Sequence record: OM982647
Strand: one strand, 5' to 3'
Origin: Escherichia phage ST2
Length of the DNA stretch: 64,000 nt
A model generated the notes under the pieces. The model was not told the DNA's origin. It was given only the letters and a program-made list of their open reading frames with translations, and did not search any database. Shown piece after piece: positions 1 through 7,844 of this stretch (positions are counted from its first letter, which is position 1; each line of letters starts with the position of its first letter). The position numbers and the translations under genes were made by a program.

Positions 1-710
1 AGAAATCCTTTAACATAATCAAAATCACGTTCAAACACATGGGCACTTACCATGGTATGAGTATAATCACCAACTTCTACACCACATTCGTTAGCGATAT
101 AATGAAGTAATTTTCCTTGGAGATAAAAATCCAGCTGCATAACAACAGCACAGTTCTGGGAACGCATATGACAGTGGGTATAAAGCTTACCATCGCGAAT
201 ATAATAAGTCACTGAGTCAGTACATGGATATTCAAGCGTTTCGTCCGAATCAAGCAAAGCCTGATCAGAACTTTCTAGAATTTGGAACACAACTCTTCGA
301 GAGTTAGGCTTCTCTTTAAGTTCTTTTAGAAGAGCTGGTAATTGGGCCGCAATGCGAGGACCATAGAAAGTGTTGAAGTTCGCCGGCAAAACATCTGATT
401 TTGGTTTAGAAATAAATTTAGCGACATTAGGATATGCCTTAAACGCTTCTTCTGCGTTGGTACCACCAGAAATCATAAACTTCCAGAAGTCTTCGGCATA
501 TTCATAAGAGATGCGGTTAATACGTGGATCGGTCATTTTGAATGATGATGGAGTGTCAACAACTACTGTCATAGACCCAATTTCATTACAACGTCCAATA
601 CGAGAATCAGTTACGAATTCCGGGTTTTCTAAAATTTCACGATTGACTGCTTTAAATGCGGCTTGAAAATCTGCGGCTTTGATATATTTCATTGTGTTAT
701 GTTTTCCCAT
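1..710 (-). CDS. 42: dCMP hydroxymethylase-like enzyme (thymidylate synthase fold), N-terminal part; gene continues past window start
   Basis: Minus-strand ORF open to position 1, ATG at 708-710; TS/dCMP-HMase-like motifs (NSRRVVFQI, YPCTDSV, MRSQN); position matches T4 gene 42. Confidence 0.75.
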   Translation of the reverse strand, partial: MGKHNTMKYIKAADFQAAFKAVNREILENPEFVTDSRIGRCNEIGSMTVVVDTPSSFKMTDPRINRISYEYAEDFWKFMISGGTNAEEAFKAYPNVAKFISKPKSDVLPANFNTFYGPRIAAQLPALLKELKEKPNSRRVVFQILESSDQALLDSDETLEYPCTDSVTYYIRDGKLYTHCHMRSQNCAVVMQLDFYLQGKLLHYIANECGVEVGDYTHTMVSAHVFERDFDYVKGF

Positions 711-751
711 GTTTACCTCAATACAGTTATTATATACTCAATTCATAAAGC

Positions 752-991
752 TTATTTGAATTTCTTAGCGATGTTGATATAACGTAGAGCTTCGGCATCG
801 ATACTTCTAAGAACACTATGAAGAAATGCATCAGCGTAGTATTCCAATTGAACAGGTTCTTTAATCACTTTAGCCGCTTTGGTTTCAAACAGGCCCATCA
901 GGGCCTTTTTAAGAATTTGTTCGTTAGTGTTCAGTTTTATAGTCAAAATCTCTTCGTTAAGTTTATAATTAAAACTTTTTCTAGAAATCAT
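752..991 (-). CDS. hypothetical protein (79 aa)
   Basis: Track ORF in same-strand array; start overlaps stop of upstream gene. Confidence 0.45.
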   Translation of the reverse strand: MISRKSFNYKLNEEILTIKLNTNEQILKKALMGLFETKAAKVIKEPVQLEYYADAFLHSVLRSIDAEALRYINIAKKFK

Positions 992-2157
992 TCCGGGTAC
1001 CTCAAAGCGTCATCAGAGTTAGTTATATCAATAATAGATATGGAGTTTTCTGCTAACCCGTTTTTAGATAATTGACGTTTATAATACCTTTCACAATATG
1101 TACACGTTGACCCACAGATTTCATTAGCACAATCAAAATCTGGATGTCTGAACCACCTTTTTTCTAAAAAGCCATCTAACAAAGAGGTTTCAATATTTAC
1201 TGTATGTGAAAACTCAGTCTCATTTTCAAGAGTGAAAATAGTCTCTAAAGGCTTCCACAGTTCTAACAAATTACCTTCAAACTTTTCAGAAGCGTATGCT
1301 TCAAGAACTTTCAAAATGTAGTCTGTGCTACCTGTACGTCCTGAAACTTTGAATTGAGTGATACCAATATCATTATAAAGTTTCAAATCTTGAGGACGAA
1401 CAAAACGAGTTCTCAACCAGTTAAATGGGTCTGTATCACGAGCTTTAATACAGTGCTGCATTGGATATCCATTTAAGGATTTAGCATCATCAGCTGTAAC
1501 ATCAGTACTATGGAAAATATAGCAAGAGTCACGATAGCTACAATGTGTTGTATACCCTTTACCAGCATTAGAACAGAACTCATTTACAAGAACTTCAAAT
1601 ATTATATTATTCTTATTGCAAAACTCTGCTGCACGCTTCAGGAAAGAAACTGAACGGTTCTTATGAATTCCGCAACAGACCTTTTTGATATTATATTGGT
1701 CATGCAAGTATTTGATTTGAGTTACAGCATCGACATGTAGAATTGTTGAAACTTCAATCTCAATGTCTTTATTGACTTCACGAACAATTTCCATAACAAC
1801 AGGGTTAGCGATAGTAATACGCCATACGCCTATTGACCAAAGATACTGAACATAATCCTGAATAGCTTTCTTCTTCCACTCAACTAGTTCTCTTTTTGAA
1901 CCAGGATTTATCGTGTTGAGTGTATAGTTAAAGCAAATACCTAATTCGTTACAACGTTTAACGTAATCTTCTAACATCTTTTTGTCAACGTCAGGAAGCC
2001 TAAAATCAGGTCTGGCTGCTACAAAAGCCATTTCTCTTGTAGAGCCGTATACTTCGTTTATCAAGCTATTAGGATAAGTGTTATTGAGCTCTACGATTTT
2101 ATCAAGAAGAGCTAAATCAAAATTCGTTCCAATTTTAAAAGTATTCATTTTTTGCAT
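988..2157 (-). CDS. peptidase-U32-family-like protein with Cys cluster
   Basis: 389 aa; TIM-barrel-like N-terminus; motifs EFCSNAGKGYTTHCSY and NGYPMQHCIKAR resemble U32 Cys signature; C-terminal CANEICGSTCTYC cluster. Confidence 0.5.
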   Translation of the reverse strand: MQKMNTFKIGTNFDLALLDKIVELNNTYPNSLINEVYGSTREMAFVAARPDFRLPDVDKKMLEDYVKRCNELGICFNYTLNTINPGSKRELVEWKKKAIQDYVQYLWSIGVWRITIANPVVMEIVREVNKDIEIEVSTILHVDAVTQIKYLHDQYNIKKVCCGIHKNRSVSFLKRAAEFCNKNNIIFEVLVNEFCSNAGKGYTTHCSYRDSCYIFHSTDVTADDAKSLNGYPMQHCIKARDTDPFNWLRTRFVRPQDLKLYNDIGITQFKVSGRTGSTDYILKVLEAYASEKFEGNLLELWKPLETIFTLENETEFSHTVNIETSLLDGFLEKRWFRHPDFDCANEICGSTCTYCERYYKRQLSKNGLAENSISIIDITNSDDALRYPE

Positions 2158-2203
2158 CTCACGTTAATTGATGCGATGGTTTTTGCAGGTCTTACTTAAA
2201 TTA

Positions 2204-2590
2204 TTATAGATTCGGTTTATATGATTTAAATGTTTCGAATTCGCCTTTATTCATAAGAGCTTTGAATTCGTCAGGACGCATAGCTTTGTCGTCGATAATC
2301 CAATCATATACTGGTTTATGTGTTAGCAAATTATGGTACTTCAAGCCAATGTTTGCCAAGTTCTGAATCAGACTTGGGAGAATGTCAATTGCTATACGAC
2401 CAGGACCTACTGACTTCATACCGCGAGCAGTGTAAAGCGTTATGGTATGCCCTGCATCATACAGGGCATTAATGGCAGACACCATTTCGACGTCTGGTTT
2501 GAAGTTCACGTAATCACGATTGTTATTCCACTCTGTTATACAATCATCGACATCAAAATAAAGATTAAGCATGTTTTCTACACGGTGCAT
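2204..2590 (-). CDS. HAD-superfamily phosphatase (putative sugar-phosphate phosphatase)
   Basis: HAD motif I FDVDDCIT, motif II LYTARG; ATG at 2588-2590 overlaps upstream stop (TAATG). Confidence 0.6.
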   Translation of the reverse strand: MHRVENMLNLYFDVDDCITEWNNNRDYVNFKPDVEMVSAINALYDAGHTITLYTARGMKSVGPGRIAIDILPSLIQNLANIGLKYHNLLTHKPVYDWIIDDKAMRPDEFKALMNKGEFETFKSYKPNL

Positions 2591-4275
2591 TAGATTCGTT
2601 CCCATTGATGAGTGATATCGCCACCGATTGGACGATAAGAAACGCCAGTTTCTTTATCAGTTAGTACCCATTTACCAGGATTTTTTGTAATCAGAGTAGC
2701 CGTTACAGGTTCTGCTACGTCATAACTAATAGAGCCGTCCTGAAGTACACGGCCCATGTTACGTAATTGCTTAGTCAGAAGTTCCATACCTTTATAATAT
2801 GCGGCTACCGCTTTAAGTGGATTATTCTTGAAATAACCACCTAATGCAATCCAGATAATTGCCACTGCCAAATGATGATACTCGTTAAACGAACTCATCT
2901 TTCCATATTTGTAAACTAATGGATTGATGTTAATAGTCACATTACAAGTTGTTTCATCAATAGTAAACTGTCCCCAGGTCGGATTAGCGTTGAATTCATC
3001 ATAACCAGAAACAGCATAAAGCACTTTAGCTTCATCATACAATTTTGGCCCGTAAATCTTGGTTTCGCCAAAATATCCACGAGGGTCGATAAACTTGACT
3101 TCACCGTTATCAGTAATCATAGTATTACTGAAGTTCGGGTCACCATGAATAACAGAGTACTGACCCTGAGAACGGTTATGATAACGAATAAGGTGTTCTA
3201 AAGCTTGTTTCAGCATTGGCTTCAGACGCCCAATCTTAGTGTAGTTCACGTGTGTGATTTTACCAAATGAATCAATCAATGGTTGAATGCTTTCACAACG
3301 ATCAATAACTTTCGTATAGAATTCTTTAGTGAAATCACGACGAACAGTTTCAGGACTTACAAAATAAGTGTCTGTGCTGAATTTCAGTGCATCTAAAATT
3401 GCATCAACAATTTGTGGACGAGCAAGACTTGATTTGGATTTAATATATTCAAATGCCGGCTTACCTTTAATGCGTTCCATTTCAAAGTTATTTTCATTAA
3501 CAGAAACTAACTGAGGGACTGAATCTGATTTCACTTTAAGATACCATGAAATCTCATCTTTTTGAAGAGCTCGACCCTGTTCGGTTAATGCGAATTTAGT
3601 TACAGTTTCTTCACCAATTTCAACTGCATTAAAACTACGATTAAGTTCACGAACTTCATGAGCTTTTTCAAGTTTAGGCATATCACCTAAATCAATTAGA
3701 TTCATAAGCTCTGATTTATTGAATGCGCTGCCGTAAAGGAATTCTACGAAATCACGTCCTTTGCAGTATTCATGAATTTCCTCATCGGTAGAACCCATAT
3801 AGAATTCCCAGTCTTTGAACTGATAAATTCCTACAACATTACCACCTGTTGAACCTACGTTAATGATATTTTCACCGTCGAAATTATATCGACATTCGTC
3901 ACCCTTAACATAGATTGCGTTAACATTCCAAGACCATGAACCAAAATCAGGAATAATATCACACCAGTTAACAATTACATTATGGCCGTCTAAATCTTTG
4001 TGTAATTTAGCAAGAGCATAAGCAGATCCATACGCTTCATCAACTGTGCGAATAGTCACATTGAACCCTTCTTGCTCACAATAAGCTCGAACAGTTTCAG
4101 CAAATTTTGAATGAACTACTACAATAATTTCATCTGCGCCAAGGTCAGAATAAATTGTATACAAATTGCTCAGAATAGTGTCTTGTTTATAGTTAACAAG
4201 CACCTTAGGAATATGATGCGTTATTGGATATAAACGAGTTGCCAATCCAGCACCAAGAATAACAGCTTTTTTCAT
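2590..4275 (-). CDS. bifunctional sugar-1-phosphate nucleotidyltransferase / APH-fold anomeric sugar kinase
   Basis: 561 aa; N-terminal MKKAVILGAGLATRL (NTP-transferase G-x-G-x-R); C-terminal HGDPNFSNTMI ... KFIDPRG (kinase catalytic loop and metal-binding motif). Confidence 0.7.
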   Translation of the reverse strand: MKKAVILGAGLATRLYPITHHIPKVLVNYKQDTILSNLYTIYSDLGADEIIVVVHSKFAETVRAYCEQEGFNVTIRTVDEAYGSAYALAKLHKDLDGHNVIVNWCDIIPDFGSWSWNVNAIYVKGDECRYNFDGENIINVGSTGGNVVGIYQFKDWEFYMGSTDEEIHEYCKGRDFVEFLYGSAFNKSELMNLIDLGDMPKLEKAHEVRELNRSFNAVEIGEETVTKFALTEQGRALQKDEISWYLKVKSDSVPQLVSVNENNFEMERIKGKPAFEYIKSKSSLARPQIVDAILDALKFSTDTYFVSPETVRRDFTKEFYTKVIDRCESIQPLIDSFGKITHVNYTKIGRLKPMLKQALEHLIRYHNRSQGQYSVIHGDPNFSNTMITDNGEVKFIDPRGYFGETKIYGPKLYDEAKVLYAVSGYDEFNANPTWGQFTIDETTCNVTININPLVYKYGKMSSFNEYHHLAVAIIWIALGGYFKNNPLKAVAAYYKGMELLTKQLRNMGRVLQDGSISYDVAEPVTATLITKNPGKWVLTDKETGVSYRPIGGDITHQWERI

Positions 4276-4316
4276 GTTGAAGTCCTCATTGGTAAGTAGG
4301 AGTATTGTACACTATT

Positions 4317-4460
4317 CTAGTTAAAGCATTCATACTTTGCTTGTAGTCCAATCATAATCCATCCAATTACAAGTGTTGGAATCATTACTGGAGCCGTTAA
4401 GCTCCAGTAGATAGTCATGACAAACATCAATAGTAAAAGTCCTATTGTTATTGATTTCAT
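4317..4460 (-). CDS. small hydrophobic membrane peptide (47 aa), not in ORF track
   Basis: ATG at 4458-4460 overlaps stop of SIS gene (ATGA); translation MKSITIGLLLLMFVMTIYWSLTAPVMIPTLVIGWIMIGLQAKYECFN; occupies imm position. Confidence 0.35.
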   Translation of the reverse strand: MKSITIGLLLLMFVMTIYWSLTAPVMIPTLVIGWIMIGLQAKYECFN

Positions 4461-5092
4461 TGTTCGCCTCGTAACATGGCACCTAGTGCACCGCCAGGGT
4501 GGAACTTAAGGAAGTCATTAGAGGTAAATCCACGTTCAGACGAAAGGTTGATAGCAAACGTATCGATAAGCGCTAACAACAATGTAGTGGACATAGTCGG
4601 AGCTAAAGAGTTCTCGTCAACTTCTACCGCGATACCGGTACAGAACGTATAATCAAAAAGAGCTTCGTATTCTTGTGGAATGTCAGGGTTACAATGTAAC
4701 AGAATCTGTTTAACCTGAGGACGAATCATACGAAGATGCTTAGCCACGCCTATCATTTCTTCAGTTTTACCAGAACGACTAATATGAATCAACACATCAT
4801 TAGGCGCAATGAATCCTGCATCACCGTGAGAATAATGCCCGGTGTTCAAGTACATACTCGGGATACCGAGTGAAGCAAATGTCTCAGAAGCTTTAGTTGC
4901 AATATTAGCATTCTTACCAACACCTGTAATAATTACTCGGCTTTCATAATTACTAAGTCCCGGGCGTCGAAGAGTTTCTAGAATAGCATTATAACGAGCA
5001 GGGTTTTGACTAATTACTTTGGCCATAGCGGCCAAAGAAGAAGCTTGTTTTATGATTGCGTCAATAGCGATAGTAATAGGAGTAGTTTTCAT
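4457..5092 (-). CDS. SIS-domain sugar-phosphate isomerase (arabinose-5-phosphate isomerase KdsD/GutQ-like, no CBS domains)
   Basis: 211 aa; SIS motifs VIITGVGKNANIA, HISRSGKT, C-terminal RGFTSNDFLKFHPGGALG typical of KdsD. Confidence 0.7.
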   Translation of the reverse strand: MKTTPITIAIDAIIKQASSLAAMAKVISQNPARYNAILETLRRPGLSNYESRVIITGVGKNANIATKASETFASLGIPSMYLNTGHYSHGDAGFIAPNDVLIHISRSGKTEEMIGVAKHLRMIRPQVKQILLHCNPDIPQEYEALFDYTFCTGIAVEVDENSLAPTMSTTLLLALIDTFAINLSSERGFTSNDFLKFHPGGALGAMLRGEQ

Positions 5093-5132
5093 ATTTCTCT
5101 CATTTAATTAGTTTACCGTCCATGACATTATA

Positions 5133-7844
5133 TCAAAAATCGAACATATCGAACAGAGATGCTTTCTTCTCGTAATCGAGTTTCGCTGCTGATGTGAATC
5201 CTTCAAGTGGTTTAATAAATGTCTTCTCAAGGAGAACAGTGTAGTCCATCCAATGAAGTACATCGTCTTTAATTAAATCTGTGATTTCAGTACCAGAAGG
5301 CCATGCGATACATTTATCACCGAATGGGTTTCCTTCGCGTAAAGGCAGAACATATACTTTTTCACCTTCTACAACTTGTGGAGCATCGATATTACCTTTG
5401 ATAGCTCGGTTATATGTCAGAATTCCACGAATATGGAACGGGCATTTGGGACCAGGGAATCCACCAACGTCATATTTAGCAATGTTATTCGCAGAAGATA
5501 CCGACGCGATGCTAATATAATTCAATTGACGGAATTCTTTTTCAAACTCTTTAAAATATTCTTGTAATGATTCTTCACCTTCTTGAAGCATACGACGAAT
5601 ACATTCTTTAAGAGCTTTCTGTACTGCTTTAGGGGTCGAAGATTTCTGAGTCTCTAGACCCATGATTTTGAGTTTAGGCTCAGCGTAACGAGTACCTTCC
5701 ATATCCCACACGTTTAATGCATAACGTTTCTTACCGGTCCAGAATCCACCAATACCTTTAGAACCGAGCGGAGGACCAGCGATAGCTTCTCGGTCCATGA
5801 ACATTAAGTGTTGTTTATTGTTCATGTATTCACACATTTCACGGAAACCTCTATCAATAGCTGGTTCCATACGTTCACGTGCAAACTTATCTAAGAAGTC
5901 TACCCAATGGTTAGTATCACGGAATTTAGATTCGCCAACCTTATCAATAATTTTATCTGCAGATACATAAATGGAGTCTGTATCACCATATAGAACGAAA
6001 GCTTCGCCTTCTGTACCACAAACTTCATTCAGATATTCATTAACTTTACGTTCAATCCACTGTAAAGCCATTTGACCAAATGTTGTGATTGCAGTTGCAT
6101 TACGCAAATCGTAATAACGGAACCAAACGTTTCCAAGTGCACCATAAAGAGAGTTGATGAGCAATTTACGGTTAATCTGTGCAGTCATACCTGCAACTTC
6201 AGTACGTTGAGCTCTAAACAACATTTCATTAAGAGATTTAGCAGACAACTTTTTAATCTTTTCTTTAATCTCGTCAGTGAAGTCGAAACGATAATCAACA
6301 TCTAATGGTTCATCAACAGAAAGATTAGGATTATGCAAGGCCTCTTTAATTATTTCACCATTACGTTGAGCTGCAAGCATGTAACCTTTATGTTCTTTAC
6401 GTTGATTAAAGACCTTAGTGATTTCAGTTGGAACTACACCATCACGGTCTTTATAATACATCATGCCGTTAGGAGAACAACTGTACACATCAGAAGGACG
6501 TTCAGCAACAGCGTTAATATAATCATGCAGCGGAGCTACTTTAAACGTTCCTGCTATTGTTTCCGGGCTAATATTCACTTGGCGAATAATACTTGGATAC
6601 AGAGATGTAAGGTCGAAACTCATTACATATTTGTATCGATTTGGAATAGGTTCCTTAACAAAAGCGCCAGGATAAGGTTGAACCGGGTGAGAACGACCTT
6701 GTGGAATCACCTTGTTCTGCTCTTTAAGGCTATTAAAAATAATAGCATCCCATGTTTTAATTGGACTGAACACAGATTGAATCTGAATTTTAGCATAATA
6801 ACCCATGTCCAAACTCAAGTTGATGAACTGACGCTTAGCATCGATTTGCAATACACGATACACGTCGATAATGTTATAAGAAATATATCGTTGGTGATTG
6901 CTTTCACGAAGCTTAGAAATAGGGCCGTCATATTTCAGTTTACCGACATTCAATTCAAATTCTGAAATGTAATCCAGAGAATACGACGGTTGGTTTGTGA
7001 AAGAGAATTTTTTGTAAAGGTCAATGTAATCAAGAACAGAGATACCGAACAATGTAATGATTTCACGAGAACCATACATGTTTTCGATAACTTTAACACG
7101 AGTTTTACGATGTGGTGACAACCGTTTCGCAGTAGATTCGCCAAAAATATTCTTGATTCTGTTATACACATATGGAATATCAAATGACTCAACGTTCCAT
7201 CCAGTCAAAATGACAGGAGTTTTCTGTTGCCAGAAGTTGAGATATTCCATCAATAATTCTTTTTCATTATCAAACGGCATATAAACGATTTTGTCGATAA
7301 TTTCGGATGGAACTTCATCACCACCTTGTTCTTGAAGCTTAGCCGCAATTTCGATAGACCATTCTTCTACATTACCATATGGAGAATTCAATAGATCAAA
7401 TACGTAGAACCTGTCGTCAATTGAGTCATAATGGGTGATAGCATCAATAGGATGTTTTGCTTGTGACGGCTCAGGGAACCCGTCCGGAGATGTTACTTCG
7501 ATGTCGAAGTTAGCCACACGAATTTTTGTATGGTCGTATTTGATTTCATAGTTATAAGTGTCAGACAAATACGCCAATTTAAAATCGTCCATGCCAAGTG
7601 CTTCAAGTCCGATATCTTCCATGCGTTTAATCCATTGGGAGGCATCACGCATATTAGCGAACAACTTACGAGTACACGGTTTACCGTAGATATCGAAATA
7701 TTTCGTAGCCTGACTTTCTGGACAATGAGCAAACAGTGATGGTTTATATTCTACTTCACGAGTACGTTCACGGCCATTAGAATCGATGTAACGTTCAAAA
7801 ATTGAATCACCAATCTGTTCAACCGTTAAGTAAAATTCTTTCAT
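5133..7844 (-). CDS. 43: DNA polymerase (B family) gp43
   Basis: 903 aa; exonuclease motif ANFDIEV and polymerase motif YGDTDS; T4 gp43 size and position. Confidence 0.97.
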   Translation of the reverse strand: MKEFYLTVEQIGDSIFERYIDSNGRERTREVEYKPSLFAHCPESQATKYFDIYGKPCTRKLFANMRDASQWIKRMEDIGLEALGMDDFKLAYLSDTYNYEIKYDHTKIRVANFDIEVTSPDGFPEPSQAKHPIDAITHYDSIDDRFYVFDLLNSPYGNVEEWSIEIAAKLQEQGGDEVPSEIIDKIVYMPFDNEKELLMEYLNFWQQKTPVILTGWNVESFDIPYVYNRIKNIFGESTAKRLSPHRKTRVKVIENMYGSREIITLFGISVLDYIDLYKKFSFTNQPSYSLDYISEFELNVGKLKYDGPISKLRESNHQRYISYNIIDVYRVLQIDAKRQFINLSLDMGYYAKIQIQSVFSPIKTWDAIIFNSLKEQNKVIPQGRSHPVQPYPGAFVKEPIPNRYKYVMSFDLTSLYPSIIRQVNISPETIAGTFKVAPLHDYINAVAERPSDVYSCSPNGMMYYKDRDGVVPTEITKVFNQRKEHKGYMLAAQRNGEIIKEALHNPNLSVDEPLDVDYRFDFTDEIKEKIKKLSAKSLNEMLFRAQRTEVAGMTAQINRKLLINSLYGALGNVWFRYYDLRNATAITTFGQMALQWIERKVNEYLNEVCGTEGEAFVLYGDTDSIYVSADKIIDKVGESKFRDTNHWVDFLDKFARERMEPAIDRGFREMCEYMNNKQHLMFMDREAIAGPPLGSKGIGGFWTGKKRYALNVWDMEGTRYAEPKLKIMGLETQKSSTPKAVQKALKECIRRMLQEGEESLQEYFKEFEKEFRQLNYISIASVSSANNIAKYDVGGFPGPKCPFHIRGILTYNRAIKGNIDAPQVVEGEKVYVLPLREGNPFGDKCIAWPSGTEITDLIKDDVLHWMDYTVLLEKTFIKPLEGFTSAAKLDYEKKASLFDMFDF

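Follow-up and report, generated by a model that had tools for sequence, protein, structure and literature searches.

The 64,000-nucleotide stretch of Escherichia phage ST2 analysed here (sequence record OM982647; hereafter the window) carries at 2590..4275, on the minus strand, a single unbroken open reading frame (ORF) for a protein of 561 amino acids, with a GAGGA ribosome-binding site 8 nucleotides 5' of its ATG. The window belongs to a Mosigvirus, one of the RB69-like T-even phages, with 99.1% identity to PhAPEC2 across 4.3 kb by megablast, and the gene lies in a part of the T4-type replication module in which all of the genes have the minus-strand orientation. Clustered with it inside the window are genes for a SIS-domain isomerase, a HAD-family phosphatase and a thymidylate-synthase-like 5-hydroxy-dCMP synthase; the first arabinosyltransferase gene is just beyond the window edge, and adjoins the synthase gene in the 99%-identical PhAPEC2 genome. 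The 561-residue product is very probably the AfhE ortholog in Mosigvirus; AfhE has two enzymatic functions on the way to UDP-D-arabinofuranose, which is used for the arabinosylation of 5-hydroxycytosine.

A sequence-only reading of this gene had described a fusion of a sugar-1-phosphate nucleotidyltransferase with a kinase of the APH/choline-kinase (ChoK) fold, and we confirm that the fusion is genuine. The three strings it quoted are all present, with MKKAVILGAGLATRL forming residues 1-15, HGDPNFSNTMI residues 377-387 (3115-3147) and FIDPRG residues 395-400. The N-terminal domain matches Pfam NTP_transferase at 39.1 bits, against a curated cut-off of 21.2; it gives the protein its top PDB match in a single-sequence search, LicC (E 2e-5), and the best match of the 40-sequence family profile, HddC (E 2e-14), in keeping with the proposed NDP-sugar pyrophosphorylase. 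PDB matches from both single-sequence and whole-length profile searches are confined to this domain, and the single-sequence search found no close PDB chain for the protein. The kinase-like Pfam matches of the C-terminal half alone are all below threshold in a single-sequence scan, and the kinase fold is assigned from a Pfam scan of family members together with structure comparison: APH is matched by 17 of the 40 members (best E 6e-10) and fructosamine kinase by ten, and AlphaFold, run on the family alignment, gives a confident model (pLDDT 93.5, pTM 0.91). Nucleotidyltransferase residues G10, R14, K24, D106, D195, D198 and K201, and kinase residues K227, E241, D379, N384 and D397, are invariant in homologs down to 28% identity. 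Both halves of the AfhE-type architecture are therefore seen in one polypeptide, namely an N-terminal GxG(T)RL signature and conserved lysine in a nucleotidyltransferase fold, and an intact HxDxxxxN loop with a downstream Mg-binding aspartate. A small C-terminal tail (residues 508-561) is missing from homologs that span only ~89% of the query.

The LicC/LicA enzymes of phosphocholine activation are fused as LicCA in Treponema denticola, and LicCA has in common with the window protein both folds and their order, an N-terminal nucleotidyltransferase followed by a ChoK-fold kinase. The gene might on that basis specify an enzyme for CDP-choline or some other CDP-amino-alcohol, with no role in sugar metabolism, as the sequence-only reading had itself allowed; we reject this explanation and give it a negligible probability. 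The similarities to LicC and LicA are at the level of fold only (11-21% identity), Pfam Choline_kinase (PF01633) is matched by none of the 40 family members at E <= 0.01, and the best family-profile match of the nucleotidyltransferase domain, HddC, is a sugar enzyme. Choline is the substrate of LicC/LicA, whereas the context here is one of sugar phosphates: an isomerase and a phosphatase flank the gene and are fused to it in distant homologs, and there is neither a choline transporter nor a phosphocholine transferase among the neighbours, which are SIS, HAD, U32, thymidylate-synthase-like and DNA polymerase genes. UDP-arabinose, moreover, is reported in PMC13326640 as the product of the 97%-identical enzyme of phage HY126, which contradicts a phosphocholine role.

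The HY126 protein (XAN60479.1) has 562 residues, of which 544 positions in 562 are shared with the window protein, including all of the motif residues, and it is the sole nucleotidyltransferase-kinase fusion of the HY126 cluster. The flanking proteins match closely too: the isomerase is identical at 209 of 211 positions to XAN60481.1, the HAD phosphatase at 127/128 to both XAN60478.1 and PDB 9iqw, and the thymidylate-synthase-like protein at the left edge at 231/236 to PDB 9iqc/9ir2/9iqu; tblastn locates a 100% match to 9iqc in HY126 (PP658200.1). Gene order is the same in the window and in HY126, running isomerase, 47-residue ORF, nucleotidyltransferase-kinase, HAD, U32, small ORF, thymidylate-synthase-like, next gene. 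Because of these identities, the shared order and the PDB-matching flanking proteins, we regard the window protein, on sequence grounds, as the ortholog of the characterised HY126 enzyme.

It is also 99.5% identical to RB69 ORF053c plus ORF052c, with which the PhAPEC2 annotation equates its own ORF. Thomas et al. (2018, PMC6024577) traced the split in RB69 to a one-base sequencing error; their resequencing gave one gene of 561 residues, which they expressed as a single ~64 kDa band and for which, along with the SIS protein ORF055c, they proposed a part in UDP-arabinose synthesis. RB69 gp52:53 has since been equated with AfhE (PMC13326640). HY126 AfhE and RB69 gp52:53 have the same two domains, near-equal length and the same neighbours as the window gene. 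The 18 substitutions and one-residue gap that separate the window and HY126 proteins imply no functional difference, and only two of the substitutions, I138T and L193I, are in the N-terminal domain. Eleven of them, and the sole gap, fall in the kinase N-lobe at residues 241-265 (window 3481-3555; EISWYLKVKSDSVPQLVSVNEN-NFEM versus EVNWYKKVKSDSVPRIVSYHPGGHFIM), which points to either a short recombined segment or a surface loop that varies.

The DNA of RB69-type phages contains arabinose (PMC6024577, PMC13390438), and the modification is arabosylated 5-hydroxycytosine, not hydroxymethylcytosine (PMC13326640, NAR 2026). PMC13326640 relays from Nat Chem Biol the work of He et al. (2026), according to which HY126 AfhE is a UDP-D-arabinose pyrophosphorylase whose kinase converts D-arabinose-5-phosphate to arabinofuranose-1,5-bisphosphate, and AfhF, a HAD phosphatase dependent on Mg, turns the bisphosphate into arabinofuranose-1-phosphate. 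A search of the literature by name for AfhE, AfhF and related genes returned unrelated papers only. The sugar activation, the NDP-sugar product and the arabinose substrate suggested by the sequence-only reading all fit the reported AfhE activity. Its salvage of a free sugar by one polypeptide does not: the same account has the HY126 enzyme acting on D-arabinose-5-phosphate made de novo from ribulose-5-phosphate, and the separate HAD protein, AfhF, would be needed between the kinase and nucleotidyltransferase steps.

We thus propose a route in which host ribulose-5-phosphate would be converted to D-arabinose-5-phosphate by the phage SIS isomerase, and the C-terminal kinase domain would use ATP to phosphorylate C1, giving arabinofuranose-1,5-bisphosphate. 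The translationally coupled HAD phosphatase would strip the 5-phosphate, the N-terminal domain would combine the resulting arabinofuranose-1-phosphate with UTP to give UDP-arabinofuranose, and phage glycosyltransferases would then place arabinose on 5-hydroxycytosine, which the thymidylate-synthase-like enzyme would supply as 5-hydroxy-dCMP. Phosphorylation of C1 before removal of the 5-phosphate would hold the sugar in its furanose form. The folds, the intact catalytic residues, the HY126 orthology and the conserved gene cassette are taken from this analysis; the literature supplies the substrates, the step order and the choice of UTP.

Several points weigh against this assignment and route. 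We infer the name AfhE for XAN60479.1 from its architecture and synteny; kinetics identical to those of the HY126 enzyme are an assumption, given the 18 differing positions; and the substrates and step order are those that PMC13326640 relays second-hand from He et al. 2026. Table 1 of PMC13326640 gives another order, with the phosphatase first and the kinase on free arabinose: RB69 gp51 'dephosphorylates Araf5p to Ara' and the RB69 C-terminal domain 'Phosphorylates Ara to Araf1p'. The HAD protein would accordingly release free D-arabinose from arabinose-5-phosphate, or the sugar would be taken up, and an APH-fold anomeric kinase and then the nucleotidyltransferase would act in succession by way of arabinose-1-phosphate. 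AmgK and NahK are, as is generally known, characterised APH-fold sugar kinases that use free sugars, and two back-to-back steps in one protein would be the simplest reason for a fusion. The text of PMC13326640, however, was revised after He et al. and has AfhE converting the 5-phosphate to the bisphosphate on which AfhF acts. From sugar chemistry, moreover, free D-arabinose should be mainly pyranose in solution, while the sugar in the DNA is reported as furanose, a form that the 5-phosphate would lock. The phage's own arabinose-5-phosphate isomerase points to de novo supply, and the HAD protein is likened to bisphosphate phosphatases of the GmhB type (PMC13326640). As to whether the two fused activities are consecutive, the HAD gene is coupled to the fusion gene here, is adjacent to it in a jumbo-phage homolog of 35-37% identity, and in further distant homologs forms one chain with it, all of which argues for, without proving, an intervening step between kinase and nucleotidyltransferase. 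We therefore consider the phosphatase-first order unlikely, with free arabinose a possible minor substrate.

A further point against the assignment concerns the nucleotide, for which UTP is taken from the literature. The structural neighbours of the N-terminal domain, with MurU among the best matches, use UTP, dTTP, CTP or GTP, and the wording for RB69 in PMC13326640 is 'NDP-arabinose ... potentially UDP-arabinose', so the same route could in the window phage lead to another carrier such as CDP-, dTDP- or GDP-arabinose. We give this a very slim chance, as HY126 AfhE is called a UDP-D-arabinose pyrophosphorylase in PMC13326640 and the window's N-terminal domain departs from it at only the two positions noted above.

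The AfhE route, as proposed, resembles two known systems. A chain of SIS isomerase, C1 kinase acting on a distally phosphorylated sugar, HAD phosphatase and nucleotidyltransferase is that of the heptose enzymes GmhA, HldE (or HddA plus HddC) and GmhB; in HldE, too, kinase and nucleotidyltransferase are fused and an external phosphatase acts between their reactions, and HddC, the best profile match noted above, is an enzyme of the GDP-heptose pathway. The kinase folds differ, being APH/ChoK-like in the window protein and, as is generally known, ribokinase-like in HldE and GHMP in HddA, and while the heptose product goes to lipopolysaccharide, the sugar here would be a pentose and its product would go to DNA. 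The likeness is thus analogous, not homologous. An HldE-type enzyme was also considered for the window protein and rejected, the kinase being of the APH/ChoK and not the PfkB fold, and the nucleotidyltransferase being of RmlA/HddC type, unlike the cytidylyltransferase-like adenylyltransferase domain of HldE. In AmgK with MurU, and enzymes of the NahK type, the pairing is the same, an APH-fold sugar C1-kinase with a minimal sugar-1-phosphate uridylyltransferase; these are generally known as salvage enzymes with free-sugar substrates and are usually separate proteins, whereas for the AfhE type a sugar 5-phosphate is reported as substrate, with a phosphatase step in between (PMC13326640).

The enzyme provides the activated sugar for arabinosyl-5-hydroxycytosine, by which RB69-like phages escape restriction and CRISPR systems, yet become targets of type IV restriction enzymes; it is therefore relevant to phage-host arms races and to the design of phage therapy. 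The gene, the fusion architecture, the pathway and the activity of the 97%-identical ortholog were all published between 2018 and 2026, and for that reason no new biology is added here. The value lies in correct annotation, as most GenBank records label the gene 'hypothetical protein' or, mistakenly, 'GlmU'. The sequence-only reading called the fusion unusual, and among phages it is rare overall, being found by tblastn in 373 of 50,697 phage records, from T4-like phages of Escherichia, Acinetobacter (57 records), Klebsiella, Vibrio, Serratia and others; within its own group it is not unusual, and its first description dates to 2018 (PMC6024577).

Features of the window in and around the nucleotidyltransferase-kinase gene
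Feature	Coordinates	Strand	Basis or remarks
Thymidylate-synthase-like 5-hydroxy-dCMP synthase	1..710	minus	crosses the window's left edge, last 2 codons cut off
79-residue ORF (RB69 ORF049c)	752..991	minus	ORF; PHROG 8601 (unknown function)
Peptidase_U32-family protein, 389 residues (RB69 ORF050c)	988..2157	minus	Pfam; cluster member, role putative
HAD-family phosphatase, 128 residues, AfhF ortholog	2204..2590	minus	PDB 9iqw, HY126 XAN60478.1, TIGR01689
Bifunctional nucleotidyltransferase/kinase, 561 residues	2590..4275	minus	ORF; probable ortholog of HY126 AfhE and of RB69 ORF053c+052c
Sugar-1-phosphate nucleotidyltransferase domain, N-terminal, residues ~1-205	3661..4275	minus	GAGLATRL signature 4231-4254
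APH/choline-kinase-fold kinase domain, residues ~210-507	2755..3648	minus	HGDPNFSN catalytic loop 3124-3147; Mg-binding FIDPRG 3076-3093
C-terminal tail, residues 508-561, small, strand-rich	2593..2754	minus	model secondary structure, pLDDT 81-90
Hydrophobic small ORF, 47 residues	4317..4460	minus	between isomerase and nucleotidyltransferase/kinase
SIS-domain D-arabinose-5-phosphate isomerase, 211 residues	4457..5092	minus	NCBIfam, PDB 3etn, HY126 XAN60481.1
gp43 polymerase	5133-7844	minus	then regA, gp62, gp44, gp45, gp46

In NCBIfam the isomerase matches KpsF/GutQ at E 5e-32 and KdsD at E 2e-30, and in the PDB it matches 3etn at E 7e-25; the HAD phosphatase matches NCBIfam TIGR01689, a capsule biosynthesis phosphatase, at E 7e-13. 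The stop codon of the fusion gene and the ATG of the HAD gene have one base in common, in a TAATG junction, and in the annotations of HY126 and of Erwinia phage Virsaitis27 these two genes likewise overlap by one base. The mechanically called HAD ORF begins at an upstream ATG (2605; 133 residues, window 2204-2605), and the second ATG, at 2590, is the start used in the PDB 9iqw construct, in RefSeq and in the HY126 annotation. This phosphatase is mislabelled 'phosphoheptose isomerase' in PHROGs and in several GenBank records, just as 'GlmU' is attached in several to the fusion. For the synthase, synthesis of 5hodC has been demonstrated with RB69 gp48, and the phage's known 5-hydroxy-dCMP synthase uses O2 (PMC13326640).

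The coupling of the fusion and HAD genes by the TAATG overlap, their adjacency in the 35-37% identical jumbo-phage homolog, and the occurrence of HAD, SIS, nucleotidyltransferase and kinase fusions together raise the idea, which we hold only tentatively and think rather less than even in its chances, that the fusion and the HAD protein form a physical unit channelling arabinofuranose-1,5-bisphosphate from kinase to phosphatase to nucleotidyltransferase domain. The jumbo-phage homolog, on a 350-kb contig, lies in a cassette of SIS, glycosyltransferase, nucleotidyltransferase-kinase, overlapping HAD and a thymidylate-synthase homolog. Among 320 homologs are chains of ~890-955 residues that join HAD, in most cases SIS, NTP_transferase and the kinase-like region, and because these are fused in distant homologs the three separate phage genes are functionally linked. 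One homolog of 926 residues (L002:8001-10781, GCA_013558355.1 contig JACCDH010973257.1) has HAD, SIS, NTP_transferase and kinase-like regions in a single chain, and its neighbours are giant-virus hallmark genes, for RNA polymerase Rpb2, RNA_pol_N and a MutS with an HNH domain. A slime-mould transcriptome (Ceratiomyxa fruticulosa; EukProt, P0090) contains a 955-residue HAD, SIS and kinase-like protein, in which no Pfam nucleotidyltransferase match was found at E <= 0.001. Giant viruses or eukaryotes may thus have the whole module from ribulose-5-phosphate to NDP-arabinofuranose, extending it beyond the T4-like phages, and if so it could serve glycans or DNA modifications so far undescribed.

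The neighbouring U32 gene may be of more interest than the fusion. Its product matches Pfam Peptidase_U32 (E 7e-11) and, weakly, UbiU, and the gene is in 221 phage records, every one at 80% identity or more, with hosts in the Enterobacterales and Shewanella; Acinetobacter is outside its ten most frequent host genera, compared with the 57 Acinetobacter phage records that have the fusion. Virsaitis27 (L008:4992-7197) has a true chorismate mutase gene (CM_2, E 1.7e-11) that overlaps both the U32 gene and the thymidylate-synthase-like synthase gene. The product of chorismate mutase is prephenate. The U32 family includes RlhA, which makes 5-hydroxycytidine in 23S rRNA with prephenate, TrhP, which makes 5-hydroxyuridine in tRNA, and UbiU/V, all of them O2-independent hydroxylases (PMC5727448, PMC6599085, PMC6747719); the phage gene is labelled only 'sugar or heterocycle reductase' in PMC13326640. 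The hosts here are facultative anaerobes, the phage DNA contains 5-hydroxycytosine and the known synthase uses O2. By family resemblance and gene context, the U32 protein may be an O2-independent, prephenate-dependent pyrimidine C5 hydroxylase offering an anaerobic route to 5-hydroxycytosine; among the papers searched we found none joining U32, prephenate, phage and hydroxycytosine, and He et al. 2026 or Mahler et al. 2025 may cover the idea.

The 79-residue ORF overlaps the stop codon of the U32 gene by 4 nucleotides, in a slot where HY126 annotates only a 40-codon ORF. Chorismate mutase was considered for it, as Virsaitis27 has that gene in the same slot, and rejected on the lack of any Pfam match and of BLASTP similarity. 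Promoter-like and terminator-like sites in 600-5400 are in no excess over shuffled sequence (14 versus 17.5 and 3 versus 2.5, respectively), and for that reason we make no statement on transcription units. The 47-residue ORF, MKSITIGLLLLMFVMTIYWSLTAPVMIPTLVIGWIMIGLQAKYECFN, is strongly hydrophobic and shares an ATGA overlap with the stop codon of the isomerase; HY126 and Virsaitis27 have an ORF of equal size in this slot and PhAPEC2 annotates a shorter form of 36 codons, and a putative small membrane protein is unexpected amid a cytosolic sugar-nucleotide cluster.

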